Shown here one piece after another: positions 13,309 to 34,500 of a stretch of 64,000 nucleotides of DNA. Where the stretch lies: assembly GCA_028284675.1 (NCBI GenBank), contig JANQRI010000005.1, positions 31,997 through 95,996 of the forward strand. Reading direction: 5' to 3'. The translations under genes were made by a program, and so were the position numbers. Within the stretch, counting starts at the first letter, position 1; each line of letters starts with the position of its first letter. The notes under the pieces are model-generated. The model was not told the DNA's origin and ran no database searches. It saw nothing but the letters and a program-made list of their open reading frames with translations. Source of the DNA: Gammaproteobacteria bacterium. Lineage in GTDB: Bacteria > Pseudomonadota > Gammaproteobacteria > HTCC5015.

Positions 13309-13310
13309 TA

Positions 13311-14804: not shown

Positions 14805-14833
14805 TCTCTTGCGGTTGCAGGGCTTCAGCTGGC

Positions 14834-15682
14834 ATGGACACGATATCCGCGATTGCTCAATTACGTGACAGAGTAAACCAATGGCAGGCAAGTGGTGAGC
14901 GCATCGCTTTTGTGCCGACCATGGGGAATTTACATGCGGGTCATCTTGAATTGATAAAGGCTGCTGCGGGTAAAGGTAGCCGGGTACTGGTCAGTATTTT
15001 TGTCAATCCATTGCAGTTTGCACCGGGCGAAGATTTTGAAAAATACCCAAGGACACTGGCTGATGATCGCGAACAGTTGTCAGGCCTGTCAGTTGATTGT
15101 TTGTTTACGCCCGATACCGAAATACTCTATCCTCGTGGAAAATCCGGTACAGCCATGGTTGTTGTGCCGGAATTAAGTGACGTATTATGCGGCGCATCCC
15201 GCCCCGGGCATTTTGCGGGGGTCGCTACAGTGGTCGCTAAATTATTTAATCTGGTGCAACCGTCAGTGGCCCTGTTTGGTAAAAAAGACTATCAACAACT
15301 GCTGATAATCCGTCGTATGGTTCAGGATTTAAACTTTCCTACCGAAATAATTGGGGTGGAGACGGTCAGGGAACATGATGGTTTGGCAATGAGTTCACGA
15401 AATCAGTATTTGAGTGCAGGAGAGCGAGCTAAAGCTCCGGAGCTGTTTCGGGTGTTGTCAGATGTTAAGCGCTCGATTATGGGCGGTGCACGGGATTACC
15501 CCCGGCTGGAGCAGGATGCAATGCAGGCATTATCAGCGCATGGGTTTGCCCCGGAGTATGTAGAAGTGCGTAGATCTGATGATTTGTTACGGCCTTCTGA
15601 TCATGATCAATCCTTGGTGTTGCTTGCAGCGGCACGTTTGGGTCAGGCTCGTTTGATCGATAATCTGGAAATTCGTTGCTGA
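14834..15682 (+). CDS. panC: Pantoate--beta-alanine ligase
   Basis: Motifs FVPTMGNLHAGHLELI and FGKKDYQQL. Confidence 0.95.
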   Translation: MDTISAIAQLRDRVNQWQASGERIAFVPTMGNLHAGHLELIKAAAGKGSRVLVSIFVNPLQFAPGEDFEKYPRTLADDREQLSGLSVDCLFTPDTEILYPRGKSGTAMVVVPELSDVLCGASRPGHFAGVATVVAKLFNLVQPSVALFGKKDYQQLLIIRRMVQDLNFPTEIIGVETVREHDGLAMSSRNQYLSAGERAKAPELFRVLSDVKRSIMGGARDYPRLEQDAMQALSAHGFAPEYVEVRRSDDLLRPSDHDQSLVLLAAARLGQARLIDNLEIRC

Positions 15683-15740
15683 AAGAAGTTATAATGCTGA
15701 TGCTTTTCCGTTTTATTATTAATTTTTTTAATAATCAAAG

Positions 15741-16133
15741 GTGCCAGTGGCGGTGCAGGTAACGCTCTTAAAATCCAAGTTACATCAGGCATATGTGACT
15801 CATTCCGAGCTGGAGTATGAGGGGTCGTGTGCTATTGATGGAAGCTTGCTGGATGCGGCCGGTATCCACGAATATGAGCAGATTCAGATTTACAATCTGA
15901 ATAACGGCGAGCGGTTTACAACGTATGCGATCCGGGCAGAGGCGGATAGCGGCGTTATTTCAGTTAACGGTGCGGCGGCGCATAAAGCCCAGCCGGGCGA
16001 CCGGGTTATCATATGCACATATGGGCAGTTCAATAGTCATGAAGCGTCGTTGCATAAGCCCATATTAATTTATATGGACCGGGAAAACCGGATTGTTCGC
16101 ACTGCAAATGCGGTTCCGATTCAGGCCGCCTGA
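15741..16133 (+). CDS. panD: Aspartate 1-decarboxylase
   Basis: [24 protein letters not shown] includes the Gly-Ser self-processing site. GTG start, and the exact start is uncertain. Confidence 0.9.
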
Positions 16134-16370
16134 GCTGGTTTATCCAAAACCGGCTTATTCCAAATTATATTCTGCCCCAATCGAGGGCTTTTCCGATCAA
16201 GTTCAGGGAATAATGGCCGAGCGTATACAATAGAGCGCTTTCTGGCCCTTATAGCTCATGGTTATTCCATCCATAACCGGGGAAAATAATCATTGGAGCA
16301 TGATAGGCTGGGTTTTCCACTGATGTTGAAGAATTGAATATGATGGTTTTTTGATTGCCCGGAGCTAACA

Positions 16371-18011: not shown

Positions 18012-18151
18012 TTGTTTGTTATAACCTTCATATCGACGTAAATTGTGATGCTGATTGCGGTGCATGATTGTTGGATAATATAAAGTGCGTCCTTCTAAAG
18101 CATATTAGAGTATGATTCAGTCCAAAGTATAAAGCTGTGTGGAGGTGCGGC

Positions 18152-18679
18152 GTGAAAAAAACGATCTTCTCAGCTGTGTTGATCATGATGGTAAGTACCG
18201 GTCACGCGCAACAGGCCGGTTGGGAGTCCTCCCGGGAGGAGTTGCAGGGCATCGACGACCAGGTCCAGACTCTGAAAAAAGAAGTCATTCAAATAAACCA
18301 TGAGTTGTCTCTACTTGAGGAAAAACTGCTGTTTCCGTCGACGACCCAGCTTTCGGTGTTTGTATCGCTGGAGGCCAAGCCGGAGTTTCGTCTTGACTCG
18401 GTGGAACTGAAAGTAGGCGAGCAGGTTGTTGCAAAGCATATTTACACGTTTCGCGAACTTGAAGCACTGCAAAAGGGCGGCGTACAAAGGTTGCATACCG
18501 GTAACATTGCGACTGGAAAGCATCAGTTGCACGCGGTTATTCGCGGTAAAACCGCCGGAGGCAGCAATTTTGAGCGCACCGCGAGTTTTCCGGTTACCAA
18601 AGACATCAAGCCCAAGTTTGTTGAAATGCAGGTACAGGCCGGTGGCACCCAGCCACGCGTAAATTTCAAAGACTGGTAA
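18152..18679 (+). CDS. Secreted coiled-coil/beta-rich protein, first gene of the TPR-ExbBD-TonB-like cluster
   Basis: GTG at 18152 lies 6 nt after GGAGG (18141-18145) and gives the signal peptide VKKTIFSAVLIMMVSTGHA. The ORF track starts at 18137. The mature protein has a heptad-like stretch (QVQTLKKEVIQINHELSLLEEKL), then a beta-rich part. I do not recognise the family. Confidence 0.7.
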   Translation: MKKTIFSAVLIMMVSTGHAQQAGWESSREELQGIDDQVQTLKKEVIQINHELSLLEEKLLFPSTTQLSVFVSLEAKPEFRLDSVELKVGEQVVAKHIYTFRELEALQKGGVQRLHTGNIATGKHQLHAVIRGKTAGGSNFERTASFPVTKDIKPKFVEMQVQAGGTQPRVNFKDW

Positions 18680-18688
18680 TTTGCAATT

Positions 18689-20698
18689 TTGAGCAGGCAA
18701 ATGGTTTTTGGGATACGTTTTCCAATCGCATTGACTCTCGGCATAGTGCTGTTTGCCGGGCATTCGGGAGTTTCTGCAAAACAGGACCCGTCCGAACTCA
18801 ATGATCTCTATTATGGTGAAGCACTTTTTTATGCATTACAGGAAAACCACTTCGATGCGATAACCCGGCTGGATGCTGAGTTGATTCAGCATTACGCACT
18901 GGATGAGCCCGAACTGGACAGCCTGGTTAGCCACCGTAGTGATGCTGAATTTGGTGTTGGTGATTTGGAGCTGAATTACCGTATGCACCAAAAAGCCGGT
19001 CGTGCGATAGAAAGAGTCCTGGATGCCAAGCATGTTCCCCAGATTATTCGTAATGAAGCGGCTTACCGGTTGGCCCGTATATATTTTGAAAAAGGTTATT
19101 ATGTAAACGCATTACATGCATTGCAGTTGATCCAGGGGCCGGTGCCGGAACGTATTAAAGATGAGGTGGTATTGCTGCGTGGCCAGGTGGAGATGACCCA
19201 AAGAAACTATGATACTGCGGTTAAGTTGTTTCAGTCAGTCAAAGGGTCTAAAAGCGTTTTTGGTTATGCGCAGTTTAATTTGGGAGTTGCGCTGATTAGA
19301 GCTGATAAATTCAAAAAAGGCGCTGCACAGCTGGATCAGGTTGGCTTGTTTCAGGATGGTCGCCGGGAAATGATAGCGTTACGCGACAAAGCGAACCTGG
19401 TATTAGGCAACAGACTGCTTGAAGATGGTAAACCCCTGCAGGCCAGACAGTATTTTGAACGCGTGCGCCTGGAGGGGCCGTTTTCCAATAAAGCTTTACT
19501 GTGGGCCGGTTGGGCGAATGCCGCACAACTGGACTTCAGAAGTGCTTTGGTTCCCTGGACTTTATTACATGAGCGCGATCCCACTGATGCGGCGGTTCAG
19601 GAAGCATTGCTTGCTGTCCCGTATGCGTATGCCCAGCTGGAGACTTTCGGGCAGGCAGCTTTATTGTATGGTAAAGCTGTTACTGAGTTTGATAAAGAGA
19701 TAGACCGTCTGGATTCATCAATGCGAAGCATACTTGAGGGTAAACTGCGGGTGGCTTTATTGAAAGATCCGCAGGAGCGTAATTCAACATTTATTCAGAA
19801 TTTACGCAGTCTCGAGGATGCCCCGGAGACACGCTATCTTCTGGAGCTGATGGCGAGCCATGATTTTCAGGAATCGGTCAAAAATTATCGTGATATGGAG
19901 CATTTGCGCCTTAACCTGCTCCAATGGCTGGCCAATATTGAAGCATATAATGATCTGATTAAGATTCGCCGAAATTATTATGAGCCGCTGTTGCCCGGAA
20001 TCGAACAGGAATTCAAAACCCAGGATGCATTAATGAGTTCGGTATTGTTGCGTCGCGATGAAGCTGAGCGCCAATTGGACACTGCGCAGCGTCAACGTGA
20101 TATCAATGCGTTTATGACACAGTCTGAGCTGGTCGTCAGTGGCCGGCTTGCACGACTTGAATACCGGCTTTCAAGATTGTCACCGCAGCCGGGGCTTAAG
20201 CAGGCGAAAGCACGTCTGGCCCGCTTGCAGGGCGTATTGGATTGGCAGGTGGAAACCGGTTATGACAGTCGTCTCGCGGTTACTCATGAGCATCTGAAAG
20301 AGCTGGATAAATCCCTGGAGGCGCTTCGTGTGCAGCATCAATTGGTTGTGCGTCTCAAGCGCGAAGCTTATCAGAGTTATGAAGGTTACAAAGTACCGTT
20401 TCGGCGTGCGACCACCCGTTTACGCACATTAAACAATCGTATTAAAGCGATTATGGTGCAGCAGGCAGCTTATCTGGAAAAAGTTGCAGTAAAAGAGCTG
20501 GATCGGCGCCGCCGTAAACTGGCTGATTACCGTGTTAAAGCGCGATTTGCGTTGGCAGAGAGCTATGACCGTGCCACCAAGAAAAAAGCCGAAGAAGCCG
20601 AGCGGGCTATTCGTGAACAACAAAATCAAATTCAGGAAATTCAGGTTGAAGACGAACCGGCAATCACTACAGAAGAAGCAGAGGCCGGCGCTTCATGA
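18689..20698 (+). CDS. Secreted TPR-like plus long coiled-coil protein
   Basis: 669-aa ORF (TTG 18689, alternative ATG 18701) with signal peptide ...LFAGHSGVSA. The N-terminal half has helical-hairpin TPR-like units (e.g. AAYRLARIYFEKGYYVNALHALQ). The C-terminal half is heptad-rich with an acidic tail. Confidence 0.75.
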   Translation: MSRQMVFGIRFPIALTLGIVLFAGHSGVSAKQDPSELNDLYYGEALFYALQENHFDAITRLDAELIQHYALDEPELDSLVSHRSDAEFGVGDLELNYRMHQKAGRAIERVLDAKHVPQIIRNEAAYRLARIYFEKGYYVNALHALQLIQGPVPERIKDEVVLLRGQVEMTQRNYDTAVKLFQSVKGSKSVFGYAQFNLGVALIRADKFKKGAAQLDQVGLFQDGRREMIALRDKANLVLGNRLLEDGKPLQARQYFERVRLEGPFSNKALLWAGWANAAQLDFRSALVPWTLLHERDPTDAAVQEALLAVPYAYAQLETFGQAALLYGKAVTEFDKEIDRLDSSMRSILEGKLRVALLKDPQERNSTFIQNLRSLEDAPETRYLLELMASHDFQESVKNYRDMEHLRLNLLQWLANIEAYNDLIKIRRNYYEPLLPGIEQEFKTQDALMSSVLLRRDEAERQLDTAQRQRDINAFMTQSELVVSGRLARLEYRLSRLSPQPGLKQAKARLARLQGVLDWQVETGYDSRLAVTHEHLKELDKSLEALRVQHQLVVRLKREAYQSYEGYKVPFRRATTRLRTLNNRIKAIMVQQAAYLEKVAVKELDRRRRKLADYRVKARFALAESYDRATKKKAEEAERAIREQQNQIQEIQVEDEPAITTEEAEAGAS

Positions 20699-23600
20699 TG
20701 CGGTATCCATACCATACGATAACCCTGGTGCTGCTGACAGTTGCATTATCTTCCTGTGGTGGTGGCGTTCGGCACAAAGACAGTATTGGCAGTCTGAATA
20801 AAAAGGTTATCAAAGTCGAAGAACCGCTGATTGAAGACTCGCTGGAAAAAGCGATGCAGGCCTATCGTAAATTCCTGACTGAGACTGACGAAACGGAAAT
20901 GACTCCTGAGGCTATGCGTCGCCTGGCTGATTTGCAGCTGGAGGCAAGCTCCGGCTCGTATGATTTTGTAAAACCTCCTGAGACTGTTAAAAAGCCTGTT
21001 CAGGAAAAACAAAAAGCTGTTGCCAAAAAACCAGTGCAGCAGGCGCCGGTTCGTCCCAGTGGCGCAACAGTTAAACAGGAGTCGATTGACCCTTCACAAT
21101 TTGGGAAATCAAAAGTTGAGTCGCCAATCCTGGAGGAGCGGGCCGATGGTACACAGGTTGCGAAAAAAGGCATTACAGCAAATCCGGAAATTAAGTCCTT
21201 AAGCGACGAGTTTAATATTGGTCCTCGCAGTGTTGAAATATTATTCTCGCTGGAGTACGAAAAAAATTCAGCCGCAATTGAATCCGAAGGTGATTTTGAA
21301 AAACGTGCTACCGGTATTTCCAAACCGGCAGCCGCACAAACAATCGCATCACTGCCGGAAGAAGCCGCTGCTGAGCAACAGCAACAAGCTGTGATTGCAA
21401 ATGCAGAAGAGGCGATTGCGCTTTATAAAAAATTATTGGACAAGTATCCACTTTACGAACGTAATGACCAGGTGATGTATCAGTTGGCCCGTGCATATGA
21501 GGAAAGCACCAGGCAGGAAGAGGCAAAAGCGGTGCTGGATAAGCTGGTTAAAAAATATCCGACATCTGTTCATTATGATGAAGCTCAGTTCAGGCGCGGT
21601 GAAATATTTTTTGTGCGCCGTAAGTATTTTGATTCGGAAAAAGCGTATACCCATGTCGTCAATTATGGTCCGAGTTCCGCATTCTATGATCAGTCTTTAT
21701 TTAAGCGCGGTTGGTCATTTTTCAAACAAAGTCTCTATGAAGAAGGTCTGGATGATTTTGTTAAATTATTGGATATCAAAACGGCAGCTGGCTATCACAT
21801 CAAAACTGAGACAAACAAAACTGAGTATCAACGGGTCGATGATACTTTTCGGGTGGTTAGTTTAAGTTTTTCTTATTTGGGTGGTCCCTCTTATATTAAC
21901 GATTATTTTAGCCGGCGTGGGCACCGCGATTATGAGTATCTGGTCTACAGTTATCTGGGAGAGCATTATCTGATCAAACGTCGCTATCAGGATGCGGCGG
22001 ATGCATACAATACATTTATTTCACTTAACCCCTATCATGAAAAATCGCCAAGCTTTCATATTCATACTATCGAGATTTACCGTAAGGGCCAGTTTCCCAA
22101 GCTGGTTATCGATGCTAAAAGGGAATTTGCGATCACCTATGATTTAAACGGAGCTTACTGGACTTATCATGATATTAATCAGTTTCAGGGAATCCTTGCA
22201 TTTATAAAAACCAATCTGACGGATTTGGCCAAGCATTATCATGCTTTGTCACAACGTTCTAAAAAGCGTGACAAACGCCGTGAGGCATATCTGGAAGCCG
22301 CGCGCTGGTATCGCAGTTTTCTGGCTTCGTTTCCGGAAGATAAGCAGGCACCTGAGTTGAATTTTTTACTGGCTGAGCTTTTATTTGATAACAAAGAGTA
22401 TAAGCAGGCTGCCGAGGAATATGAGCGAACTGCCTATGCGTATCCGGTTCACCCCAAATCGGCCGAATCAGGTTATGCGGCGATTTTGTCTTTTCGCGAA
22501 TATAAAAAACAGGCGCCGGAACATTTAAAAGCGCAAATTCATTTGGAGGCAATACGAAGCTCCCTGCAGTTTGCTGATACGTATCCGGCGCATCCGCAGG
22601 CAGCTGATGTATTGACCAGTGCTGCTGAAAGCCTGTATGCGCTTAAAGAGTATGACCGGGCTATTATGGCGGCGCAAAAAGTATTGGAGCGGCATGCGAA
22701 GGCGGACCCGAAGTTAATAAGCGCTTCCTGGATTGTTGTGGCGCATTCAAAGTTTGATTTGCAAAACTTTCCCGACGCGGAGCAGGCATATCAGCAGGTT
22801 TTAAAATTATTACCGAAAAAAGACAAGCGTAAAACAGCGTTGACCGACAAGCTGGCCGCATCCATATATAAACAGGGTGAACAGCATAAAGATCTGGGAG
22901 AATTGGATCTGGCTGTTGAGGATTTCTTGCGTATCGCGAATGTTGCGCCACGTTCCAAGATTCGCCAGACGGCTGAGTTTGATGCGGCAACCGCATTGAT
23001 TACCTTAAAGGACTGGGATCGTGGCGCTAAGGTTTTGGAAGCATTTCGAAAAAACTATCCGAAAAACCCGCTGCAATATGATGTGACTACCAAACTGGCA
23101 TTTGTTTATCAGGAAAGCGGTCAGGCCGGTGCAGCGGCACGTGAATATCAGCGCATCGCGGATGACAGTAAGGATACCGCAGTCAAGCAGGAAGCACTGC
23201 AGAAAGCTGCCGAGCTTTATACCCAGGCTGAACAGTACCCTGCGGCCATTTCAATGCATAAACGTTTTATCAAAAGGTATGCCGATCCGGTTGAGCCGGC
23301 GTTGGAAGCAAGACAGCAACTGGCTGAGCTGTATAAAAAGATCGGCCAGCAAAAACAATATACAAAGACCCTGAAAGAAATTGTCGCGGTTGATAAAAAA
23401 GCAGGTAAGCAACGCAATGAGCGCACCCGCTTTCTGGCGGCAAATGCGGCTTTGGTGCTGGCCGAGCCTGTATTGAAGGTATTTAAAGATGCTCCTTTGG
23501 GACCGCCGTTTAAAAAGACCCTTGCAGCGAAGAAAAAGAAGATGCAGCGGGCACTAAACTTATACGGGGATCTGGCCGATTACAACGTGGCGGAGGTCAC

Positions 23601-23901
23601 CGCTGCGGCAACATTCCAGATTGCCAATATATATTATGAATTCAGTACAGATCTATTGGAGTCAGAACGGCCCAAAAAGCTATCCGCTGAAGAACTGGAA
23701 CAGTACGATTTATTACTTGAAGAGCAGGCTTATCCATTTGAAGAGAAAGCCATCGAAGTTCATGAAAAGAATGTCGAGTTGCTGTCTCTGGGTGTATACA
23801 ACCGGTGGATAGCAAAAAGTTTGGAAAGCCTCGGGCGTTTATTGCCGGTGCGTTATGCAAAACAAGAGCAAGGTGAAAAATTTGTTCTCTCTATTTATTA
23901 A
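20695..23901 (+). CDS. Large TPR-repeat lipoprotein (GltD/NfsD-like by architecture)
   Basis: 1,068-aa ORF with an ATGA overlap with the upstream gene. The lipobox is LSSC (Cys codon 20755-20757). It has a Lys/Pro/Gln-rich linker, then many YbgF/BamD-like TPR hairpins (e.g. QVMYQLARAYEESTRQEEAKAVLDKLVKKYP). Confidence 0.75.
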   Translation: MMRYPYHTITLVLLTVALSSCGGGVRHKDSIGSLNKKVIKVEEPLIEDSLEKAMQAYRKFLTETDETEMTPEAMRRLADLQLEASSGSYDFVKPPETVKKPVQEKQKAVAKKPVQQAPVRPSGATVKQESIDPSQFGKSKVESPILEERADGTQVAKKGITANPEIKSLSDEFNIGPRSVEILFSLEYEKNSAAIESEGDFEKRATGISKPAAAQTIASLPEEAAAEQQQQAVIANAEEAIALYKKLLDKYPLYERNDQVMYQLARAYEESTRQEEAKAVLDKLVKKYPTSVHYDEAQFRRGEIFFVRRKYFDSEKAYTHVVNYGPSSAFYDQSLFKRGWSFFKQSLYEEGLDDFVKLLDIKTAAGYHIKTETNKTEYQRVDDTFRVVSLSFSYLGGPSYINDYFSRRGHRDYEYLVYSYLGEHYLIKRRYQDAADAYNTFISLNPYHEKSPSFHIHTIEIYRKGQFPKLVIDAKREFAITYDLNGAYWTYHDINQFQGILAFIKTNLTDLAKHYHALSQRSKKRDKRREAYLEAARWYRSFLASFPEDKQAPELNFLLAELLFDNKEYKQAAEEYERTAYAYPVHPKSAESGYAAILSFREYKKQAPEHLKAQIHLEAIRSSLQFADTYPAHPQAADVLTSAAESLYALKEYDRAIMAAQKVLERHAKADPKLISASWIVVAHSKFDLQNFPDAEQAYQQVLKLLPKKDKRKTALTDKLAASIYKQGEQHKDLGELDLAVEDFLRIANVAPRSKIRQTAEFDAATALITLKDWDRGAKVLEAFRKNYPKNPLQYDVTTKLAFVYQESGQAGAAAREYQRIADDSKDTAVKQEALQKAAELYTQAEQYPAAISMHKRFIKRYADPVEPALEARQQLAELYKKIGQQKQYTKTLKEIVAVDKKAGKQRNERTRFLAANAALVLAEPVLKVFKDAPLGPPFKKTLAAKKKKMQRALNLYGDLADYNVAEVTAAATFQIANIYYEFSTDLLESERPKKLSAEELEQYDLLLEEQAYPFEEKAIEVHEKNVELLSLGVYNRWIAKSLESLGRLLPVRYAKQEQGEKFVLSIY

Positions 23902-24550
23902 TGGAAAACCCTGGTTGTTTTTTGGGTTGTTGATGATCCTCGTTGGCTGTGTAGGGGGCAATACCAGCGTAAAGTACCGCGGTAGTGAAGCCCGGTCGCC
24001 GGTCGCGATTAGTGCCGCGTTGCAAAACGATTTTAAAAAAGCACTTGCACTGATGAAAAAGGAGAAGTACGAGGATGCGATCCCGCTTCTTGAGGCTATT
24101 TTGGCAAAAAATGATCAACTTCCGGGTACGCATATTAATCTGGCCATTGCGTATATGAATGTGGTAACTGACGATGATAAGGAAAACTTAAGCAAAGCGG
24201 AGCGTTCCCTGTTACGTGCTGTTGAAGTAAACCCCAAAGATGCTGTTGCACATCACCAGCTCGGTTTACTGTATCGCAAAACCGGGCGTTTTAAAGAGGC
24301 CCAGACAGCATATCAACGCGCACTTTCGCTCAAGCCGGACTATGCTAAAGCGCATCTGAATCTTGGCATTTTATGCGATATTTATTTACAGGAGTTTGAG
24401 TGCGCGATTAAGCATTTTGAGCAATACAGCGGTATGGCAGGAGAAGATCGTGAAACAGTTTCATTATGGCTTTCGGATTTGCGACGGCGGGCCGGTATTC
24501 CTGAGCCGCCGCAACAAGAGCAGGCTGCTGTCAGTGAGGTGAGTCCATGA
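23855..24550 (+). CDS. Small TPR lipoprotein (GltE/NfsE-like by position)
   Basis: 231-aa ORF with lipobox ILVGC (Cys codon about 23948). It has canonical TPRs (AHHQLGLLYRKTGRFKEAQTAYQRALSLKPDYAKAHLNLG). The start is uncertain: ATG 23855 overlaps the upstream gene by 47 nt, and GTG 23873 is an alternative. Confidence 0.75.
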   Translation: MQNKSKVKNLFSLFINGKPWLFFGLLMILVGCVGGNTSVKYRGSEARSPVAISAALQNDFKKALALMKKEKYEDAIPLLEAILAKNDQLPGTHINLAIAYMNVVTDDDKENLSKAERSLLRAVEVNPKDAVAHHQLGLLYRKTGRFKEAQTAYQRALSLKPDYAKAHLNLGILCDIYLQEFECAIKHFEQYSGMAGEDRETVSLWLSDLRRRAGIPEPPQQEQAAVSEVSP

Positions 24551-24825
24551 GAATAATTTCAATTGTGCTATTCATGTGTATCGGGCTAAACAGTGCGGTG
24601 CATGCACAGGCTCAACCGGAAGGTGAAACAGTCGATATGAGTGGCATTTCAATTATTGGTAACAGAGAACTGCCCAAAACCCTGTTTATTGTGCCGTGGA
24701 AGAATTCCGAGGTGGGTATCGAGAGTGAGCTGACAAACACACTTGATGCGGGTATGCGGCCTGTTGATCGTAAAGAGTTTGTGCGCGAGCTGGATTATTA
24801 TGATTTTAGCCGCAATCTGCAGTAG
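24547..24825 (+). CDS. Small secreted protein of unknown function (GltF-like only by size and position)
   Basis: 92-aa ORF with an ATGA overlap with the upstream gene and signal peptide MRIISIVLFMCIGLNSAVHA. No recognisable domain. Confidence 0.6.
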   Translation: MRIISIVLFMCIGLNSAVHAQAQPEGETVDMSGISIIGNRELPKTLFIVPWKNSEVGIESELTNTLDAGMRPVDRKEFVRELDYYDFSRNLQ

Positions 24826-24997
24826 ACCTGGGGTTTGTGCATATACCTTGAATGAGCCTGTATAAAAGAGCTTTCCGGGTAGAGCTTGCTGAATCAGTGC
24901 AGGTTGCGGGATTTGCTGCTGTAAACAGAAGAATAAGCTTAAAAATTTGTGTTGGTTCAATACTTTGGGCTAAAGTGCTCCAAATTATCTAAGGTTT

Positions 24998-25006
24998 TGA
25001 TAGTAT
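24998..25006 (+). promoter_or_regulatory. Candidate extended -10 promoter element upstream of exbB-like gene
   Basis: TG-A-TAGTAT (TGnTATAAT-like) lies 30 nt upstream of the ATG at 25036, inside a 210-bp non-coding gap. The -35 is weak (TCCAAA). Confidence 0.25.
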
Positions 25007-25035
25007 ACAGCTGATTTTGCGAAGAGGGTGTCGGT

Positions 25036-25689
25036 ATGTCTGATTTTTTATATGCAATTCCCCGGTTTTTTCAAACGGGCGGACCATTCATGTATCCGAT
25101 TCTTATCGTGTTTGGTTTCGGGCTGGCGATCGCGATTGAGCGCTGGATAAAGCTGAATAGTGCCAGGCGTCGCAACAGGAAAACATGGGACGAAATCCAG
25201 CCAGTTTTACAGGAAGGTGATTTTGATCAGGCGCGGGAGATGACCTCGGGCTCCGAAACCGAGTTGGGCATGGTATTAAGCTTGGGTTTAAGCCGTCAGG
25301 GTGCGGTGCGCCGACGCGATGATATCGAGATCGCGATGGAAGAGGGCATGATGGAAATTATCCCGCAACTGGAGAAGCGCACACATTATTTGGCATTGTT
25401 TTCAAATATGTCCACACTGTTGGGATTATTGGGAACAATTATGGGCCTGATTGCAGCGTTTACCGCGGTGGCAAATGCGAATCCGGCTGAAAAGGCGGAT
25501 TTGCTCTCGGCCAGTATCTCGGTTGCAATGAATACGACCGCATTCGGTTTGATGGCAGGTATTCCATTGCTGTTATTGCATGCGGTATTAACCACCAAGA
25601 CCAGTGAGATTGTGGATAGTCTGGAAATGGCTCAGGTTAAAACCCTGAACATCATTACCGAGTTTGCCAAGCAAGAAGCGCGTAGCTGA
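25036..25689 (+). CDS. MotA/TolQ/ExbB-family proton channel subunit
   Basis: 217-aa ORF with three TM segments. The C-terminal region LFSNMSTLLGLLGTIMGLIAAF ... SVAMNTTAFGLMAGIPLLLLH is typical of ExbB/TolQ. Confidence 0.9.
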   Translation: MSDFLYAIPRFFQTGGPFMYPILIVFGFGLAIAIERWIKLNSARRRNRKTWDEIQPVLQEGDFDQAREMTSGSETELGMVLSLGLSRQGAVRRRDDIEIAMEEGMMEIIPQLEKRTHYLALFSNMSTLLGLLGTIMGLIAAFTAVANANPAEKADLLSASISVAMNTTAFGLMAGIPLLLLHAVLTTKTSEIVDSLEMAQVKTLNIITEFAKQEARS

Positions 25690-26228
25690 TGTCCAGACGA
25701 CGTCGTTTCCGCTCCGACAATAAAGCGCCGGGCGAGCTTGATATCACCTCATTTTTGAATTTGATGGTGGTATTAGTGCCGTTTTTGCTGATTACTGCGG
25801 TATTTTCAAGAATCACGATTTTGCAGTTAAATCTCCCCAGTGGGGAAGGTGCCCAACAGGCGGACGATAAAAAAATCACAATTGAAGTTATTATACGCCG
25901 GGATCGAATCGACCTTGGTGATGGGCGCCAGATCGTAACCCGTTTCCCAAATACCGAAACCGGTGAATACGATATCGTGTCACTGTCCGCGACTCTGCGT
26001 GAAATAAAAAATAATTTTCCAGCAAAGCTCGATGCCATTGTGTTGATGGAGCCTGATCTTGAATATGAGTTTTTGGTCAAGGTTATGGATGCTGTCAGCG
26101 GTGCCGAAGTACTGGAGGAAGACGGTACGACCACCAAAATCGAGTTGTTTCCACAAATTTCTGTCGGTGATGCGCCCGGAGTTAAAACTTCGGGCGTATT
26201 TTTGCAGATCAAAGGTGCCTATACATGA
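25689..26228 (+). CDS. ExbD/TolR-family protein, paralogue 1 (Asn at the canonical TM Asp position)
   Basis: 179-aa ORF with a TGATG overlap with exbB. The N-terminal TM is ELDITSFLNLMVVLVPFLLI, followed by a periplasmic domain. Confidence 0.85.
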   Translation: MSRRRRFRSDNKAPGELDITSFLNLMVVLVPFLLITAVFSRITILQLNLPSGEGAQQADDKKITIEVIIRRDRIDLGDGRQIVTRFPNTETGEYDIVSLSATLREIKNNFPAKLDAIVLMEPDLEYEFLVKVMDAVSGAEVLEEDGTTTKIELFPQISVGDAPGVKTSGVFLQIKGAYT

Positions 26229-26728
26229 AAGATTCACGCCGCATCAAGCGCATGAGCCGTGGGAAGGGCAAGAAAAAAGTGCCCAGCATGAACCTGGTAT
26301 CGCTGATGGACGTGTTTACCATCCTGGTATTCTTTTTGTTGGTGAACTCTTCCACGACTGAGGAGCTGAGTGATCCTAAGTCGATAGAATTACCTGAGTC
26401 CGTGTCAGAGAGTAAACCGGAGCAGACAATTGTATTGATGGTCACACCGACCAATATATTGATCAGAGGCGAAAGCATCGCGGTTGTTGAAGATATACTG
26501 GCGCAAAAGGAACTGGTAGTGAATTCAATCAGGGCCGCGCTGATAGAAGAAGCGGAGCGTAATCAAAGTCTGAGCACGCAAAGCCAGCAAAAACGGAAAG
26601 AAATCACAATCATGGGTGACCGGCAAATACCGTTTAAGTTACTCAAAAAGGTGATGGCCAGTTGTACTTCGGCCGGTTTTGAAAAAATTTCTTTGGCGGT
26701 GGTGCAGAAGGCATCGCAGGCAAGCTAA
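26225..26728 (+). CDS. ExbD/TolR-family protein, paralogue 2 (canonical TM Asp retained)
   Basis: 167-aa ORF with an ATGA overlap. The TM segment is MNLVSLMDVFTILVFFLLV, with Asp29 at codon 26309-26311. Confidence 0.85.
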   Translation: MKDSRRIKRMSRGKGKKKVPSMNLVSLMDVFTILVFFLLVNSSTTEELSDPKSIELPESVSESKPEQTIVLMVTPTNILIRGESIAVVEDILAQKELVVNSIRAALIEEAERNQSLSTQSQQKRKEITIMGDRQIPFKLLKKVMASCTSAGFEKISLAVVQKASQAS

Positions 26729-26774
26729 GGTCTGTTGACATTAATGGCATGTATCTGCCGATTGCATAGAGACA

Positions 26775-28172
26775 ATGACCGATCAGTTATCCGAAAAAGA
26801 GATAGAGCTGGAACGCGAACTTAATGAGCGTAAGCAGGTCCTGTCCGAAGCCCGTGCCGAATTTGAAGCTGCCGAAACTGCTTATGAGCAGTTGCGTAAA
26901 AAGCATGATACCGCGCAAAGGCTTGATCAACTTGCGAAGCAACTGGCTGAACTCGCACAACTTAATCCGCTAAATGAGGAAAGCCCGTTTACCGGTGAAT
27001 CACTGGAGGGGGCTGATCAGGTTAATCAGCATTATGCTGAGCTGGTTGAGCGTATCAATGCTCAGGTCGGGGCTTTTAGAAAGCGCTATAACGAAGCTGA
27101 GTCCAGGGTAAAAGCTGCAGAGAAAGAATTAACCGTCGCGCGGCAGGCGAGCAATAAAGTGGCCGGCGAGCTTGAGCAGGCAAGGCCATTGGTTCGTACC
27201 AGCACAATCATGCGGACCGGCAGTGATGGTGTTGAAAGAGCTTATGTAGTTATTTATCGGCGTGACACGGTGATGCCCTGGTCTGAAGCGACCAAGGATA
27301 AAAGGCGGTTCCGTAAGGCTGTTGTTCGTATCACGCTGTTGATGTTGATACTGGCGATTATCCTGCCTTTCATACCATTGCCGGAACCCAAAGAAATAGA
27401 GGTGATTGAAATTCCTGAAAGGGTCGCCCAGCTGATTCAGGAGCGTAAGCCCCCGCCGCCGCCTCCACCTCCGCCACCCAAGAAAGCTGACAAGCAACCC
27501 AAGGATGCAAAGAAAAAGCAGCTTAAGCCGCGCAAACAGGCGCCTAAAGCGAAAACAGAAGTGGCCAAAGCCGCGCGTGAAAAAGCCCAGCGTTCCGGTT
27601 TGCTGGCTTTTCGGGAAAGCTTTGCCGACCTGATGGACAATAGCGCTGAGGCCAAATTGGGTAAGCAGGCCAGAGTGACCAGCGGCGGTCAGACCGCAAG
27701 AAAAACCGAACGCTCTTTAATCACAACTGCTGCGGGTAAAGGCAGCCAGGGTATTAATGTTGCAAGTTTAAGTCGTGATGTTGCCGGAACCGGGCTAAAA
27801 GGGCGAGGCACCAGTCGGGTAACCGGGGTTATCGGTGATGAGTTCGGTGATGCTGACAGACCGTTGGCTGAGTCTATCCGGGGTTCACGCACTGATGAAG
27901 AGATACAGCTGGTTTTTGATCGAAATAAAAGCGCGCTATATTCGATTTATCAGCGTGAATTAAGGAAAAACCCGACCCTCAAAGGTAAAATCGTGCTGAA
28001 AATCACGATTGCACCATCCGGTAAGGTGTTGGCTTCCGCGGTGGTTTCCAGTGATCTTAATAGCCCGGAACTGGAGCGCAAAATTGCTGCCCGTGTGAAG
28101 CTTTTCAATTTTGGCGGCAAAGACGTAGATACCATTACGATAAATTACCCGATAGACTTTCTGCCTGCCTGA
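26775..28172 (+). CDS. Atypical TonB-like energy transducer (AgmX/PglI-like C-terminal domain, from memory of that family)
   Basis: 465-aa ORF with about 180 aa of N-terminal coiled coil and a single TM (ITLLMLILAIILPFIPL). A run of 10 Pro (27450-27479) is followed by a Lys-rich linker. The C-terminus has a TonB_C-like fold signature (KGKIVLKITIAPSGKVLASAVVSS...ITINYPIDF). Confidence 0.8.
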   Translation: MTDQLSEKEIELERELNERKQVLSEARAEFEAAETAYEQLRKKHDTAQRLDQLAKQLAELAQLNPLNEESPFTGESLEGADQVNQHYAELVERINAQVGAFRKRYNEAESRVKAAEKELTVARQASNKVAGELEQARPLVRTSTIMRTGSDGVERAYVVIYRRDTVMPWSEATKDKRRFRKAVVRITLLMLILAIILPFIPLPEPKEIEVIEIPERVAQLIQERKPPPPPPPPPPKKADKQPKDAKKKQLKPRKQAPKAKTEVAKAAREKAQRSGLLAFRESFADLMDNSAEAKLGKQARVTSGGQTARKTERSLITTAAGKGSQGINVASLSRDVAGTGLKGRGTSRVTGVIGDEFGDADRPLAESIRGSRTDEEIQLVFDRNKSALYSIYQRELRKNPTLKGKIVLKITIAPSGKVLASAVVSSDLNSPELERKIAARVKLFNFGGKDVDTITINYPIDFLPA

Positions 28173-28556
28173 TCCGTATATTTTAATAACGGAAACACTC
28201 TGGAAATCTGTGTGTTTTATTAAAAAATATGCGTGCTTATACGCGCGTTGGTTGTGCTTGCAGGAATCTGCTGCTCCAAAATGATTGGCTTGCAAAGTTT
28301 AAAAACCGGTTTTTTCAATGCTTAAATTTAGTTTAATTCCGGTGCTTTCGGGCTCTTCCGCTAAGAGGTGCTATTTGTTAGACTAGCGGCGATGATAAGT
28401 ATTGTAAAAACAATAAGTTAGGGCTATTTTATTATAAGGATCATTTAATGCGAGGCATATCACGGTTGCAATCCCAGGGACGGCTAAAATAAGCCGGATA
28501 TCCTGAATCAGAATGCCTGATCAGGACAACTTTAAATTTGGTTTTAGTTTAATTTG

Positions 28557-31500
28557 ATGCCCAATAAAAAAATAACAAGGCAGGTATTACCGCTTATCAG
28601 GTACTGCTTTTTTGGCTTTAGCCTGCTTGCCTTGTTGACTGTGCATCCCATAGCTAGAGCTGTTCCGCTTATAAACTCTGCGACTCAGTTTACTCCTGCA
28701 GATACAGCCCGTGACCCTGATTCAGTGCCGAACAACGGCGATGAATATATGGATTCCGCGGGTGTATGGAATGGTCTTGTCGAAGTTACCAATACCACCG
28801 GCGATAGTTTTCAGATTACGCTGACTAACAGCGCGGCCGGTGCACCCGATCCGCTGGTAGACGATGTTGCATTCGATATCGGATTGACCCTGAATGTACC
28901 TGCCGGGTTTCGCTTGCCGGTAAGCCCGTTCAATGTAACCACTGCCGCCACTGGTGGCGACCCGGGTGCGGCTAATTGTGTGGCGCCCGGTGGTGGCACG
29001 ATTACCGCAACCCAGGCCGGTGGTGCCGGTACCCCAATCACGTTCAATATCCCGGCCGATACCAATTTGCCGGCACGGGCCCCTTGTAACTACTCTTTCC
29101 AGTTTGGGCTGACGACCAATGACAGTGCTCCTTTCGTAACCGGCGGCAACTACCAACTGGATTACGATTTTAGCTATAACGAGATTGATGATGATGCCGG
29201 TTCTCAACAAACCACGAACGCGATGCAAAGTGTTGAGGTGCGTGAAGGGGATATCATCATCGTAAAAGCAGCTGTGCCGAATCCGGCGGACCCGAACGGT
29301 GCCTATGCAGATGGTGAAACCGCCGAATGGACTGTATCCGTATTCGGTAACGGTAATGGCGGCAGCTTTGCAGTGCTAATAACTGATTTGTTGAATATCA
29401 ATTTTGATGCGGCGACGTTGCAGTTGACACCGCCGGCAAATCCACCGGGTACGCCGTTCCCTGTGCCTGTGGGTAACAATCAGTACACAATTAACTATCT
29501 GGCTCCCGGGCAACGTGTTGATATCACGGTGCAGGCGAATGTAGCGGTTCCGGCGAATGCAGCAAGTTGCCCTGATTTGCGCAATGATGTAAATGCTGCC
29601 GATCGCCTTGGCAATGCCAGTGCATCGTTTGATTCGGTGGTGTTTGATTTGCAGGATCCATTGCTGGCTTATACGCCGAACGATATTAACATTCCGTTTG
29701 GCGGCACTGACACGGTCAGTTTTAATGTGACCAACCCGGGCTTGGGTGCTGACGGGGGTACTGCAAGAAATATCGTGCTGGATGTCAGTGGTCTTGCCGG
29801 TTTTACCGTGTCCAATGTGTCCGCGCTATGGGCCTTTGACGGCACCAGCCAATTCACTTATCTGGGGCTAGACGGTTTACCGGCTTCCGGTGATGAAATT
29901 CTGGTCAACGGCGGTTCGGCGTTACTGCAATTTGATGTGGGTATGGGGACCTGTGGCGGTCCGGCCGCCAGCACACTGACCTGGACACCCAGTTATGAAA
30001 ACCTGTGTGGGCTTTCGTTTACTCCGCCGATAGAAACATCAACCATTACAGTTGTTAACGAACCGACCTTGGGTATCACCAAGGCTGTTGCACCGGGTGT
30101 CACTAACTTTGGTCAGCCGGCCGTGTATACAATCGATATCACCGGAGCGAACGCGGGCGGCTTGCCGACTGTCGCTGGAGTAGATAATGACTGGACGGTG
30201 ACTGATACATTGCCGCCAGGTGTCAGTGCCGGGGTGATTCCAGCAGTCCCCACCGGCACGATAATTACGATCGGTGCTACAGTATTTACCGATGTTGATA
30301 CAAATATCCCGGTGACTGCCGGCGATACGATTATCTGGCAGGGTGACCGTGATGACCTGGTTCCGACGCTGCCCTCCATAACGGTGAACTTTACCGTTGA
30401 TAGTGGTCCGTTTTGTCCTCCTGATCCGCCGATTACCATTGGCAATACCGCGACACTTGACTATCCGAGTTGTGGCATCAATGTGGCAGACGGTGCCGCA
30501 TTACTTGTGAACGATAGTCCGATTGATGGTGCGCTGCAGCAGTTTACGATTTCAGCCGGTACTCCGGCGCCATTTGAAACCGGTCGGCCTGATACTGATC
30601 TGGTCGCGGTGAATGAAGCAAATGAAGGTGAGCGGATTACCTTTACCGCGACTTACCAGTTTCCTGTGGGTTATCCGGGTATCTGGAGCGGTTCATCCTT
30701 AACCACTGAGATGGGTACCGGCGCCGGCGGTTTAGCGGGTTCACCGTTGCAGCTGGCCTTTGTCGACGGGAATGGAGATGATTTGCCGACTGCCGGGGAA
30801 GTCAGCGGTGTGACGGTTCAGGTGACCAATCCAGGTGGTCCGGATTTTCCGTTAACCAATCTGACGATCGGTGCCGCAGCAGGCCAGGTTACCGTAAACC
30901 CGGGAGGTACGATCACAATAGCAAACCTCGATTTTATCGGTGCAGTGGTCGGTGCCAATATGGCCGATACCACTTTCACGATTGCCTACACTGTCACTGC
31001 ACCGGAAGGTAATCTGGATGCAAATCTGCAGCCGCTGGATGAGGTTAACATTGGCGCATTTACCGAGCGCCTCACATTCTCAGTGGCGAACAACCCGGCC
31101 AGTTGCGGTGGCGGAATTGATTTTACTCAGGGGATTACCGGGATTCAGCTGGAGCGTTCCGATGTCGGCATTGGCGGTAATATCAGCACAACCAACGATG
31201 CCGGTGCTTGCGGTCCGACCACTGCGACCATTGATATCACCGCGCCGCCGGCCGGTGGGCTTAATGCCGATAATATCCGTATTTTATTGCAGGGCACGGA
31301 CTATGTATTGCCGAATATGGTCGGCGATTATACCTTCGGCGGTGCCGGCAACCTGGCTGCGCTCAATCCGACGATCAGTTTTGCCGGCAGTGATGTAATT
31401 ATTGAAGTTACGCCGGGTGACGGCGGTAACCTGACCGGTGATTCGACAATCAGTTTTCCGGTAAATCTAAATGCCGCGGCGGCTGCGCGTGATTTGCCGG

Positions 31501-34500
31501 CAACGGTGTTCTTTGACAGCAATCACACCTCGCCTGATTTTTCTATCGCGCTGGAAAGCGATGAAGACTATAACAATGCTGCGGTGCTGGCCGGTCCGGT
31601 GCAAACCGCAAATCTGGATGTCGAGTTTTTTCCGCCGAATGTGATACTCGGTGATCCGAATAATTTTGCCGATGTTGATCCCGGTCAACCCGGACTCGAA
31701 GGGGTGTTTACCTGGCTGGTCAGAATCACCAATGTCGGCACTAATACCGTTTCGGGTTATGTGTTTTCGAACATGGTGCCGCCGGGCTTTTTACCGTTTC
31801 GTGCCGGTTCATCTCCGGTCGCGGATGCCGGTCTGCTGACCGATCCGCTGATGGTCTGGAGCGGTTTACCTGATTTGTTGCCGGGCGGTTCGGTTGAGAT
31901 CACTGTTGCGATCGGATTGCCGCAAAACGCCGGTTGTAATGTGGGTAATCCGAATCAAACCACGGTTGCTTCCGGCTGTGTTGATGGCACCACGCTGTTT
32001 ACTGAAAACGGCCCGAATGTTTTGTTTCCGGTTATTGATCTGCAGCTTGAGCACCTGGATACCAGTTTCTGTGAATTATGCCGTGATGGTACGGTGGAGC
32101 TGGAAGTGCGTAACGAAGGTGCCTCTGATTTATACGATGTTGTTGTAACCGAAAATCTCGCCGGTTCCGGTTTGGAATATGTGTTGGGCAGCACCGAAGT
32201 ATTTGTCGAAGGCACTGCCGGATTCGTTGCGGTTGGTGATAATGCTGCAACCAATGCCACGCAAATTGTTTGGGATAGCACAAACATTGCGGCATTGGGA
32301 CAGCTGCTATCCGAGATTAACGGTATGCCGTCTGAAATGACGATTCGGTTCCGGGTCCGGTCCTCAGACCCGAACGCGGAAAACCTGGTTGCGGCAAACC
32401 GGAATATCAGTGCAAGCGGGGATTTTAATTTGTTTTGCGGTGATCCGGGTTTGCCATTGGTGGTCGATAATTTTCAGGTGCCCTTGCGTCAGCCGCAGCC
32501 GCAGGTGGAGAAACTTGGCCGAAACTTTTCGGCGCGGCAGACCGCAGCTGATTATGCCGACCCGGTATTTGGTGGTACAGATGACATCGTGATCTGGCAG
32601 GTTGACGTTGCGAACAGTGGTGTAACTTCATCCGCTGATTTGGAAGACTTGCTGGTTAACGATACGGTTGCACCAGGCCTTAACTTTACGCTGCAATTTG
32701 TTTGTCCGACTGAGGCTGATGCGGATGCCCGCGCGGTCGCACTGGAAACATTGGTGGCTCCGGCAGATGCATGTATACCGTATTTACCGGTGTTAGATGT
32801 CGATGACCCTTTCGGTAACCCGGGTAATGACCAGCCCGGTACGTTTATCGATGCTGCGGCCGGTAGCAGCGCTTTTGTTTATTACGTCGGTACGATTCAG
32901 AATCTTTGTACCAATGAAAATAATAATGTTGATATCCAGTGGGGTTGTGAGTCGAACAGTCCACCTGCGGGCGGTATCAATGCTGACGGTAGTGGCGGTG
33001 CATTATCGGCAGGCCTTGCCGCAGGCGATGATGATGACAGTGCATTTCTGAGTACGACCGTTGATCCGAATGGTGTGCTGGTCACACAAACCTTTACCGG
33101 AACCAATACGGCTCAACCTGTGGGCACGAAAGGTATTCTGACAATTACCGTCACCAATAACAGCGGTGGTACGGTACGTGATCTTATTTTAACCGATACC
33201 CTGCCGACCGATTACGAGTTGGATTTGACCTCATTGAATCCGCCAAATACGCCATTTGTTGTGAATCCTGCATTTGGTGTGTATCCAGGTATTGCCGATA
33301 CGTTTGCGGTTAATGCGACCAATCCGAATCAGCCGGTGTTTACATTTACCAGCTCAACCCAGGGGACGGTGAACCAGGCAAATTTATTGCGTAATGGTGA
33401 TGAGTTGGTTTTGACCGTGGGTGTAGTGCGGGTGCGGCCGTTTGATAATGTTAATGACCCTGAAGTCAGAACCGAGAACCCAGGTGACGGTACCGACCCG
33501 GATTATGCCCCACCGTTGCCGGCGGACGACGATAACACCGTCAGCCTGCAGTTCAGTAATACCTGTGGCACTGTATTCACTGATGCAGACAGTGTAAATC
33601 TGCCAAGCGTTATAGACGTTAATATCAACCCCGAGGATATCGATGTCGATATTAATCCGGCTGATCCTAACCTGCTGTTTATTCTCAGTGACCCGACCGC
33701 GACATTAAACTTCAATGTTGTCGTTAGCAATAACGGTGGTCATGACGCAAGCGACTATGATACTTACGTAACCGTGGGTAACGGTATCGATCCCGGAGTG
33801 ATACCGGCCGGGTGTGCACTGGCTGCCCCACCGGCTGAGCTTGGTTTTCCGCCAACAAATCCGGCAGGCATATTGCCGCCGGAATATAACCCGGCTGATT
33901 CACTGACGTTTCGTTGTGTAACCACCGACCCAATACCTCCAGGCGGTTCCGATACATTTGGCTTTACCATACAGCGCGCATTGCCGTTGGGTGTGTCCGG
34001 AGACTTAACATTTCGTGCCGATGTATTGGCACGCACTACATTAAGCGACGGGTCCGCGCCACCGGACCGGGGGGCGGCCGGTTATCCTTATTACTCCAAG
34101 GATAATATTCTTGCCCGTATTATTGGTTTTAATTTATTTAAAACATTTTTCGGAAACTGCAGTGAGGATAATCCCCCGCCGGTTGCGAACGGTAATGTGA
34201 TTATCGGTGAAGAATGTACGTTTGAAGTCGAGGCTGAATGGTTTGGTTTCGCAACACCCGGTTTTGGCAATATTGAAGTACGCAATCCGCGCATCTATGA
34301 GGGTGCGCTCACGAACAACCCGCCGCCGCCCGAGGGCAACCCCGGTGTTGATCCGCCAAACCTGCCGGATACTTTGGACGGGCAGGGGCTGGTGAGTATT
34401 GATACCACGGCCAGCAGCGCCGGTGTCAGTGTTGCGGTACAAAACCCGGCCGCACCCGCAGCGCTGGCCGAAACCGGATTGGCCTGGCGGTTAAATAATA

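Follow-up and report, generated by a model that had tools for sequence, protein, structure and literature searches.

The 64,000-nt stretch of a gammaproteobacterial genome analyzed here (assembly GCA_028284675.1, contig JANQRI010000005.1, positions 31,997–95,996; referred to below as the window) carries nine consecutive genes, g1 to g9, which very probably represent an Agl-Glt "core complex", the type of envelope machine ancestral to the Glt and Nfs systems of Myxococcus. This assignment is made because the order and sizes of the genes equal those of the published core, the C-terminal domain of g9 passes the AgmX/PglI model, and the motor genes consist of one MotA_ExbB and two ExbD family members. 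The existence of the core is already known, and the window adds nothing new on this point. The new lead is a conserved pair of genes, encoding an adhesin-like protein (g10) and a protein with a predicted giant barrel (g11), that stands beside cores with a long GltG. The question of what the core does in bacteria that do not glide dates from 2011 and is stated as open by the groups working on gliding themselves, and the answer bears on the evolution of a complex motility machine; Islam et al. still give the core as seven genes of unknown function.

All nine open reading frames (ORFs) lie on the forward strand (18137–28172), with the positions given in the original prediction, a description made from the nucleotide sequence without database searches. 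The nine genes and their order are as described there, and their translations show signal peptides (g1, g2 and g5) and lipoboxes (g3 and g4), with TPR (g2–g4), MotA_ExbB (g6) and ExbD (g7 and g8) domains recognised by Pfam; for g1, a GTG at 18137 is a possible start instead of 18152. The same prediction had closed the cluster at 28172. The conserved unit runs past this position and comprises eleven genes (g1–g11; Table 1), with g10 and g11 (28554–46516) as further conserved partners.

Table 1. Coordinates in the window, products and features of the eleven genes of the conserved unit (aa, amino acids)
Gene	Coordinates	Strand	Product	Features
g1	18137..18679	+	180-aa secreted protein	signal peptide; N-terminal coiled-coil-like segment; beta-rich C-terminal part
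g2	18689..20698	+	669-aa periplasmic TPR and coiled-coil protein	signal peptide; weak TPR matches; long charged helical C-terminus
g3	20695..23901	+	1,068-aa TPR lipoprotein	lipobox LSSC; many TPR, YbgF-type and BamD-type matches
g4	23855..24550	+	231-aa TPR lipoprotein	lipobox LVGC; TPR matches
g5	24547..24825	+	92-aa secreted protein	signal peptide
g6	25036..25689	+	217-aa MotA/TolQ/ExbB-family proton-channel subunit, presumed AglR-type stator	PF01618, 84 bits
g7	25689..26228	+	179-aa ExbD/TolR-family subunit, AglQ position	PF02472, 54 bits
g8	26225..26728	+	167-aa ExbD/TolR-family subunit, AglS position	PF02472, 68 bits
g9	26775..28172	+	465-aa TonB-like transducer, GltG-type	cytoplasmic coiled coil (aa 1 to about 180); one transmembrane helix; Pro/Lys-rich linker; TonB-like C-terminus
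g10	28554..41264	+	4,236-aa secreted adhesin-like protein	signal peptide; DUF11/CLIPPER, DUF7619, DUF7927 and SdrD_B Ig-like stalk domains; RrgB-type isopeptide domain (Pfam, NCBIfam)
g11	41261..46516	+	1,751-aa OmpA-like and predicted barrel protein	signal peptide; OmpA, PomB and TssL matches

Relationship of the nine genes to the Agl-Glt core

Luciano et al. (2011; PLoS Genet 7:e1002268; PMC3169522) defined the core complex (Group B) as GltC, GltD, GltE and GltG together with AglR, AglQ and AglS. In several Gammaproteobacteria, Methylibium, Geobacter and Fibrobacter they found these genes, whose function there is unknown, together in a single region, and they reported that the core has one "additional gene" without a myxobacterial homologue. 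Group A, which includes GltF, was limited to Myxococcales and the Bdellovibrio group (Bdellovibrionales). This is the phylogenomic report of a core outside Myxococcales to which the original prediction had referred, and the likeness to the Glt/Nfs-Agl core that it had proposed is largely borne out. The g2–g9 proteins, with 669, 1068, 231, 92, 217, 179, 167 and 465 aa, fit one by one the clusters in Table S3 of that paper, such as Shewanella frigidimarina Sfri_1230–1223 (GltC 692, GltD 1016, GltE 263, a skipped locus tag, AglR 217, AglQ 188, AglS 177 and GltG 332 aa) and Geobacter uraniireducens Gura_3077–3070 (629, 1108, 240, a skipped tag, 211, 166, 166 and 484 aa). A related locus from a Geobacter metagenome-assembled genome (MAG; L044) has gene sizes near those of Gura_3070–3077.

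A degenerate-pattern scan for the GltD-like gene, with one genome per species, detected it in the genomes of more than 509 species. This distribution, over many phyla, goes well beyond the roughly ten non-myxobacterial genomes for which the core was first listed. The best 80 loci, each from a different species, were retained for comparison; none comes from a named Myxococcus, and their record labels include Gammaproteobacteria, Burkholderiales, Zetaproteobacteria, Desulfobacterales, Desulfuromonadales, Geobacter, Nitrospirota, Acidobacteriota, Gemmatimonadota and Myxococcota. Searches with the window proteins (tblastn) revealed the nine genes in the same order in essentially all 80 loci where the contig is long enough. 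The arrangement is not due to chance, because both the genes and their order recur across these loci of different species. Cultured carriers among the relatives include Thiohalomonas denitrificans (L083) and Microbulbifer species.

The five genes upstream of the motor encode secreted or lipid-anchored proteins. g1 has no significant Pfam or NCBIfam match, but its homologue lies directly 5´ of the GltC-like gene in 71 of the 80 loci, and the family keeps the motifs LEEkLLyPSnTQ and GGVQRiYtGN; g1 is taken to be an additional conserved member and the first gene of the cluster, which is not listed for the core in the text of Luciano et al. (2011). For g2, the description as a TPR plus coiled-coil protein stands, although the protein had been left unassigned. 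Because its position just before GltD and its size match those of the published GltC homologues (550–692 aa), it is a predicted GltC homologue (the MXAN_2541 class of Table S3), with a counterpart in 76 of the 80 loci. The two TPR lipoproteins had been likened to GltD and GltE, and the published positions and sizes agree with both proposals. g3 is presumed to be the GltD homologue and the central periplasmic scaffold; published GltD homologues have 933–1,108 aa and occupy the same position. It has more than 2,665 strong homologues in a protein collection, and it carries six YbgF/CpoB-type TPR stretches (TIGR02795) that together reach 131 bits and pass the cut-off only as a sum. g4, found in 75 of the 80 loci, is assigned as a GltE homologue by position and size (published homologues have 162–272 aa). 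It scores 46.8 bits against the GltE model, which is below the cut-off, and the PilW and MamA TPR families score higher. No Pfam or NCBIfam model named for GltC or GltD is among the matches to g2 and g3.

The small secreted protein g5 lacks a Pfam or NCBIfam match at E ≤ 0.01, and a homologue was found in 73 of the 80 loci. Its motif GmSI.GN.EaPKsL.IVPWK is very strongly conserved, across phyla. Because the skipped locus tags in Table S3 fall between GltE and AglR, where g5 sits, it can be equated, by position only, with the published "additional gene" of the core. The original prediction had compared g5 with GltF. The comparison holds for the position after GltE and for the size (GltF of Anaeromyxobacter has 89–90 aa), but no profile match supports it and GltF is restricted to Myxococcales and Bdellovibrionales in the published survey. 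By analogy with GltF and GltG in the published model, the conserved motif could pair as a β-strand with the TonB-like domain.

The three motor proteins were compared with TolQ, ExbB, TolR and ExbD of E. coli. g6 shares 27–28% identity with E. coli ExbB and TolQ versus 44–88% with its cluster homologues, and the ExbB- and ExbD-like proteins of the window share 22–28% with E. coli TolQ, ExbB and ExbD. In a neighbour-joining tree the cluster ExbB proteins form one group apart from E. coli TolQ and ExbB. All three proteins fall below the NCBIfam equivalog cut-offs for TolQ, TolR, ExbB, ExbB2, ExbD, ExbD_1 and ExbD_2: tolQ scores 50.5 bits (cut-off 221), tolR 24–33 (127), exbB 40 (206), exbB2 28.5 (135) and ExbD_2 23.9 (123). 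Their placement in the AglR/AglQ/AglS clade would follow from published trees of the Geobacter and Thioalkalivibrio clusters, in which gene order and sizes are the same. Homologues of g6 to g9 were found in 59–62 of the 80 loci. g7 and g8 align weakly with each other (29% identity over 35 residues) and differ in the column of TolR Asp23 and ExbD Asp25. g7 has Asn at this position, as do 47 members of its family, while 12 have Asp; g8 has Asp, as do all 58 aligned members of its family, with two others gapped. The stator is probably a heteromer with a single protonatable Asp, because g8 keeps the transmembrane Asp while g7 has Asn. This agrees with the arrangement modelled for Myxococcus, which places an AglQ/AglS heterodimer within an AglR pentamer.

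Two variations of the motor genes were observed among the related loci. Four of them (L037, L040, L053 and L054, labelled as Candidatus Angelobacter, Myxococcaceae, Acidobacteriota and Thermoanaerobaculia MAGs) have a very divergent ExbB-like gene (34–44 bits by phmmer), two ExbD-like genes that both bear the canonical TolR/ExbD-type motif (INITPLVDVVLVLLIIF), and a short GltG of 324–352 aa; the motor module in these loci appears to be swapped or strongly diverged. Three MAGs labelled as Desulfobacterales or Nitrospirae carry a second, closely related ExbB-like gene after the GltG-like gene (L018, 10053–10766; L020, around 18190; L026, around 17471).

In g9, the linker that follows the transmembrane helix contains a run of ten prolines and then a lysine-rich stretch. 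The C-terminal domain (aa 373–462; window 27891–28160) passes the AgmX/PglI C-terminal domain model NF033768 with 67.9 bits (cut-off 40) and fails the generic TonB C-terminal model TIGR01352 with 22.3 bits (cut-off 27.1). The GltG model NF033760 matches g9 with an E value of 9e-14 over aa 239–459, and only the periplasmic linker and the C-terminal domain align in these 220 residues. A sequence search of the PDB returned only low-complexity proline matches for this protein.

The adhesin and barrel genes beside the core

In 35 of the loci, the core is flanked by 3 kb or more on both sides. A g10 homologue adjoins the core in 31 of these well-flanked loci, and the linkage spans many phyla (record labels Gammaproteobacteria, Burkholderiales, Desulfobacterales, Desulfuromonadales, Geobacter, Nitrospirota, Acidobacteriota, Gemmatimonadota and Myxococcota). 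The genes are found in two arrangements, g9-g10-g11 or g10-g11-g1, and g11 is always located 3´ of g10 in the related loci that cover this stretch. All-versus-all clustering of the flanking ORFs of the 80 loci revealed no further conserved family; the largest additional one is thioredoxin-like and occurs in seven loci. Only one of the four exceptions is of the long type (L003), and here the g10 and g11 homologues stand side by side in the contig of the core, about 100 genes away from it (KatS3mg121_0376 and _0375; GltD is _0278). In the protein-collection searches, of which the 120 closest matches were listed, several GltD-like and g11-like matches agree in the length of the longest contig, which suggests that they share contigs. 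The long-GltG core is genetically coupled to g10 and g11, and a functional coupling is likely. In the papers searched on the function of the core and on a link between DUF11 and OmpA, there was no mention of the g10 and g11 partners, and only speculation on what the core does.

Judged from the sequences, the core splits into two subtypes, one with a long and one with a short GltG. The long form has 465 aa in the window, 484 aa in Geobacter uraniireducens and 535 aa in Thioalkalivibrio. The loci with a short GltG (303–329 aa; including L064, L065, L068, L075 and L079) form a separate clade in the ExbB tree and have no g10 nearby, save L015, where a long-type cluster sits in tandem. This locus, from a Thiohalomonadaceae MAG, holds one cluster of each subtype at 717–17690. 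Other genes were observed near individual clusters. A thioredoxin/TlpA-like gene precedes g1 in L063, L068, L070, L074, L075 and L079, several of which, among those with a known GltG length, are of the short subtype; in L034 such a gene lies 3´ of g9, on the other strand. L063, L064, L070 and L074 contain a family of 343-aa ORFs that by eye resembles ApbE.

g10 combines a signal peptide with a long series of stalk domains. DUF11 has been renamed CLIPPER, an isopeptide-bonded stalk domain of fibrillar adhesins (PMC12617251). In the AlphaFold 2 (AF2) model of the C-terminal 800 residues, Ig-like sandwiches follow one another in a chain; the model has a predicted local distance difference test score (pLDDT) of 74.8, and its Foldseek matches are pilins and MSCRAMM stalks, e.g. 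BcpA, SdrD, SpaD and PrgB. The C-terminal residues, about 110 aa (window 40929–41261), form a β-α-β-α-β domain that is confident in the AF2 model and has no Pfam or PDB match in sequence and profile searches. An OmpA-like identity had been suspected from the sequence of this domain, but profile searches against the PDB and Pfam do not support it. The domain occurs in 720 representative proteins, and among the best 150 of these it is nearly always at the extreme C-terminus, in proteins that range from 800 to 6,855 aa. The domain seems to serve in sorting or docking and to be of a kind not described before.

g11 contains two to three OmpA/MotB-type peptidoglycan-binding domains (about aa 120–560), followed by a very large all-β C-terminal region (about aa 865–1750), with about 900–1,300 residues in long antiparallel strands. 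In the AF2 model (pLDDT 66.7) roughly 30–40 such strands are seen, and the C-terminal region is predicted to be a very large outer-membrane β-barrel. Foldseek matched the model only to large outer-membrane barrels (LptD, TonB-dependent transporters, MtrB, the FimD usher and Deinococcus SlpA), with a probability of 1.0. Homologues of g11 number more than 2,164, with lengths of about 1,700 aa.

Possible output of the machine and competing explanations

We favour, with moderate confidence, the explanation that the eleven genes encode an envelope machine, driven by protons, by which the adhesin g10 is secreted, exposed or held. The mechanism would be analogous to those of TolQR and ExbBD and to the published AlphaFold model of Agl-Glt. 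A g6 pentamer would surround a g7/g8 heterodimer, in which g8 supplies the single protonatable Asp. Proton flow would change the conformation of g9, whose transmembrane helix is docked on the stator, and the Pro/Lys-rich linker and AgmX/PglI-type domain of g9 would then engage the TPR scaffold of g3, g4 and g2. Together with the small secreted proteins g1 and g5, g2 may act as an adaptor that links the scaffold to the peptidoglycan-fixed barrel g11. Finally, g10, once exported by Sec, would be translocated, exposed or held at the cell surface with this energy, and its conserved C-terminal domain would be the piece that docks on or plugs g11. A precedent is the Glt outer-membrane platform of M. 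xanthus, which holds the CglB adhesin at the cell surface. That the output is the secretion or deployment of g10 is a tentative proposal. More specifically, diderm bacteria might possess, in the long-GltG core with g10 and g11, a hitherto unrecognised system that exports or deploys giant isopeptide-stalk adhesins with a dedicated C-terminal domain, and in which a TolQR-like motor and a TonB-like arm act via the TPR scaffold on a very large outer-membrane barrel anchored to peptidoglycan; we regard this version as somewhat unlikely.

A number of observations weigh against this explanation or parts of it. On the side of the core, the original prediction had likened g9 to the TonB-like GltG, which the AgmX/PglI match supports, but g9, at 50.9 bits, falls short of the cut-off of 650 for NF033760 and so is no equivalog of GltG. 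Its N-terminus gives coiled-coil-type matches and no FHA domain in Pfam or NCBIfam, while GltG of M. xanthus has two. The homology to M. xanthus proteins is deduced from the GltG and AgmX/PglI models of NCBIfam and from published assignments of orthologous clusters. On the side of the partners, a gap of 381 nt separates g9 from g10, and therefore the block that ends with g9 and the g10–g11 block may be separate transcripts. The size and closure of the g11 barrel are uncertain, as its model has, besides the pLDDT of 66.7, a predicted TM-score (pTM) of 0.51 and TM-scores to matched structures of up to 0.29. The other three of the 35 well-flanked loci that lack the linkage (L068, L075 and L079) have a short GltG of 303–311 aa and neither g10 nor g11 adjacent, and a short GltG (321–334 aa) is found in all published Cellvibrio, Marinobacter, Saccharophagus, Hahella, Shewanella and Teredinibacter clusters of Table S3. 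Because the short-GltG subtype has no adjacent g10 or g11, the adhesin cannot be the universal output of the core. Finally, adjacency cannot tell secretion from movement, tensioning or release of the adhesin.

In an alternative that we consider unlikely, the cluster would serve envelope integrity in a Tol-Pal-like manner, with the adhesin as a bystander; the motor and TPR proteins would use the OmpA-like domains of g11 to tether or remodel peptidoglycan and outer membrane. The motor does belong to the TolQR/ExbBD superfamily, g3 combines its six YbgF/CpoB-type stretches with BamD-type TPRs, and the two to three domains of g11 that bind peptidoglycan are of the OmpA/Pal type. However, the cluster contains no TolB, Pal or TolA equivalog, CpoB scores 32.8 bits against a cut-off of 383, and TolQ and TolR likewise stay far below their cut-offs. 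The g10–g11 pair stays with the core across phyla in two arrangements, which is hard to square with a bystander adhesin.

TonB-dependent import, e.g. by a system such as Vibrio TonB2/TtpB-D, had been raised in the original prediction as the alternative that would overturn it. Here g9 would energise the uptake of a large substrate via g11, and g10 would be the surface capture protein. The ExbB/ExbD/TonB-like architecture invites this explanation, at least one database match is annotated as "TPR domain protein, putative component of TonB system", and TonB-dependent transporters are among the Foldseek matches of the g11 barrel. We nevertheless give it only a small probability. All ExbB, ExbB2, ExbD, ExbD_1 and ExbD_2 equivalog models score far below cut-off, and the C-terminal domain of g9 fails the TonB model while passing the AgmX/PglI model. 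The Pfam and NCBIfam matches to g11 include no TonB-dependent receptor family, its N-terminal part is OmpA-like, and the flanks of the 80 loci contain no further conserved gene family. The gene content is GltC/GltD/GltE-like; the TtpB/TtpC/TtpD set presumably differs from it.

A comparably small probability is assigned to the transport of a polymer (polysaccharide or capsule), in which a surface glycan would be moved or assembled with g10 and g11 as its surface scaffold. Agl-Nfs, which derives from the same core, transports the spore-coat polymer, and Wartel et al. (2013; PMC3858216) proposed the core as a "basal transport machinery" whose function is set by its cargo. No family for polysaccharide synthesis or export is conserved around the cluster in the 80 loci, however; the annotated neighbours in the window are housekeeping genes, and the sole conserved partners are proteins.

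True surface motility is very unlikely as the output. In this case the motor would move g10 along the cell surface, as SprB moves in Bacteroidetes, a parallel that Islam et al. draw. The descent shared with the Myxococcus gliding motor and the very large adhesin partner would suit such a role, but no Group A gene (GltA, GltB, GltH, GltI, GltJ or GltK) was found among the annotated ORFs of the window, nor was CglB, and the peptidoglycan-binding domains of g11 imply a fixed rather than a travelling outer-membrane part. Zorya-type anti-phage defence (ZorA/ZorB) was rejected, as only generic MotA-domain (17 bits) and OmpA/MotB-domain matches were obtained and no other Zor component.

A motor that secretes, exposes or holds the adhesin would have consequences beyond this cluster. 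The linkage to the adhesin and barrel turns "unknown function" into a concrete hypothesis, which is testable in the cultured carriers. If it is true, an inner-membrane motor that drives an adhesin would be the ancestral job of the core machine, and motor-adhesin coupling would predate Myxococcus gliding, which would have been built from it. The system would also be a possibly new route for placing giant adhesins on the diderm cell surface.

Genomic setting and comparison with known systems

The eleven-gene unit is embedded among housekeeping genes, with uvrC, pgsA, pcnB, folK, panBCD and pgi upstream and dusA, the RNase P RNA, mraZ and the cell-division (dcw) cluster downstream. The upstream block at 5097–18011 (pcnB, folK, a kinase-like gene, panB, panC, panD and pgi) has an identical order in the three closest MAG loci (L001–L003). 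Because this order is the same, the cluster is judged to be chromosomal and stable within its gammaproteobacterial lineage; the GC content gives no hint of recent transfer. Most of the nine core genes overlap or lie no more than 46 nt apart, the exception being 210 nt before the ExbB gene g6, and this tight spacing therefore fits an operon. The g10 stop and the g11 start overlap by 4 nt. Promoter and terminator scans returned counts no higher than in shuffled sequence and are uninformative on the operon limits.

Three further features were noted around the unit. A 221-aa ORF at 47135–47800 follows the barrel gene and has a signal-peptide-like N-terminus; it has no family match or counterpart in the related loci and is apparently not a part of the conserved unit. 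Between a methyltransferase-like ORF and mraZ there is an RNase P RNA of bacterial class A (49767–50117; 332.7 bits), and a tRNA-Gly(GCC) gene (10504–10579) is located 3´ of pgsA.

Among the known machines, the TonB-ExbB-ExbD systems, including Vibrio TonB2/TtpB-D, share the trio of ExbB-, ExbD- and TonB-like proteins and a proline-rich linker with the cluster. They differ in the C-terminal domain of the transducer, which in g9 is of the AgmX/PglI type, and the equivalog scores of the cluster proteins are far below cut-off. Tol-Pal likewise belongs to the same motor superfamily and has an elongated inner-membrane transducer, YbgF-type TPR units and an OmpA/Pal-type link to peptidoglycan. In contrast to Tol-Pal, the cluster reaches no equivalog cut-off, lacks TolB and Pal, has two ExbD-like subunits instead of a TolR homodimer, encodes much larger TPR proteins and has an adhesin partner.

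The type IX secretion and gliding system of Bacteroidetes (GldLM, the SprA translocon and SprB) resembles the unit by analogy only, in combining a very large single-chain barrel with a giant repeat adhesin. The GldLM motor is proton-driven. The periplasmic scaffold is different, and no relationship at the sequence or family level was found or is claimed; the C-terminal domain of g10 matched no Pfam family, and hence no known type IX C-terminal signal was seen.

With the Agl-Glt and Agl-Nfs machines of M. xanthus, the unit shares a presumed AglR/AglQ/AglS-type proton motor (one channel and two ExbD-like subunits), a TonB-like transducer, a large TPR scaffold and a barrel platform, predicted here, that would present an adhesin. 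GltG carries FHA domains in M. xanthus, whereas g9 has a coiled coil; three small barrels there compare with one predicted very large barrel with OmpA-like domains here, and a VWA-lipoprotein adhesin there with a large adhesin of the isopeptide-stalk type here. In the window, moreover, all genes stand in one locus. Compared with the core of Luciano et al. (2011), the gene content, order, sizes, AgmX/PglI-type domain and kinds of hosts (Gammaproteobacteria, Geobacter and others) are alike. Most published gammaproteobacterial GltG proteins have 321–334 aa, in contrast to the long GltG of 465 aa in the window, and the seven genes plus one of the published text are extended here to eleven by g1, g10 and g11.

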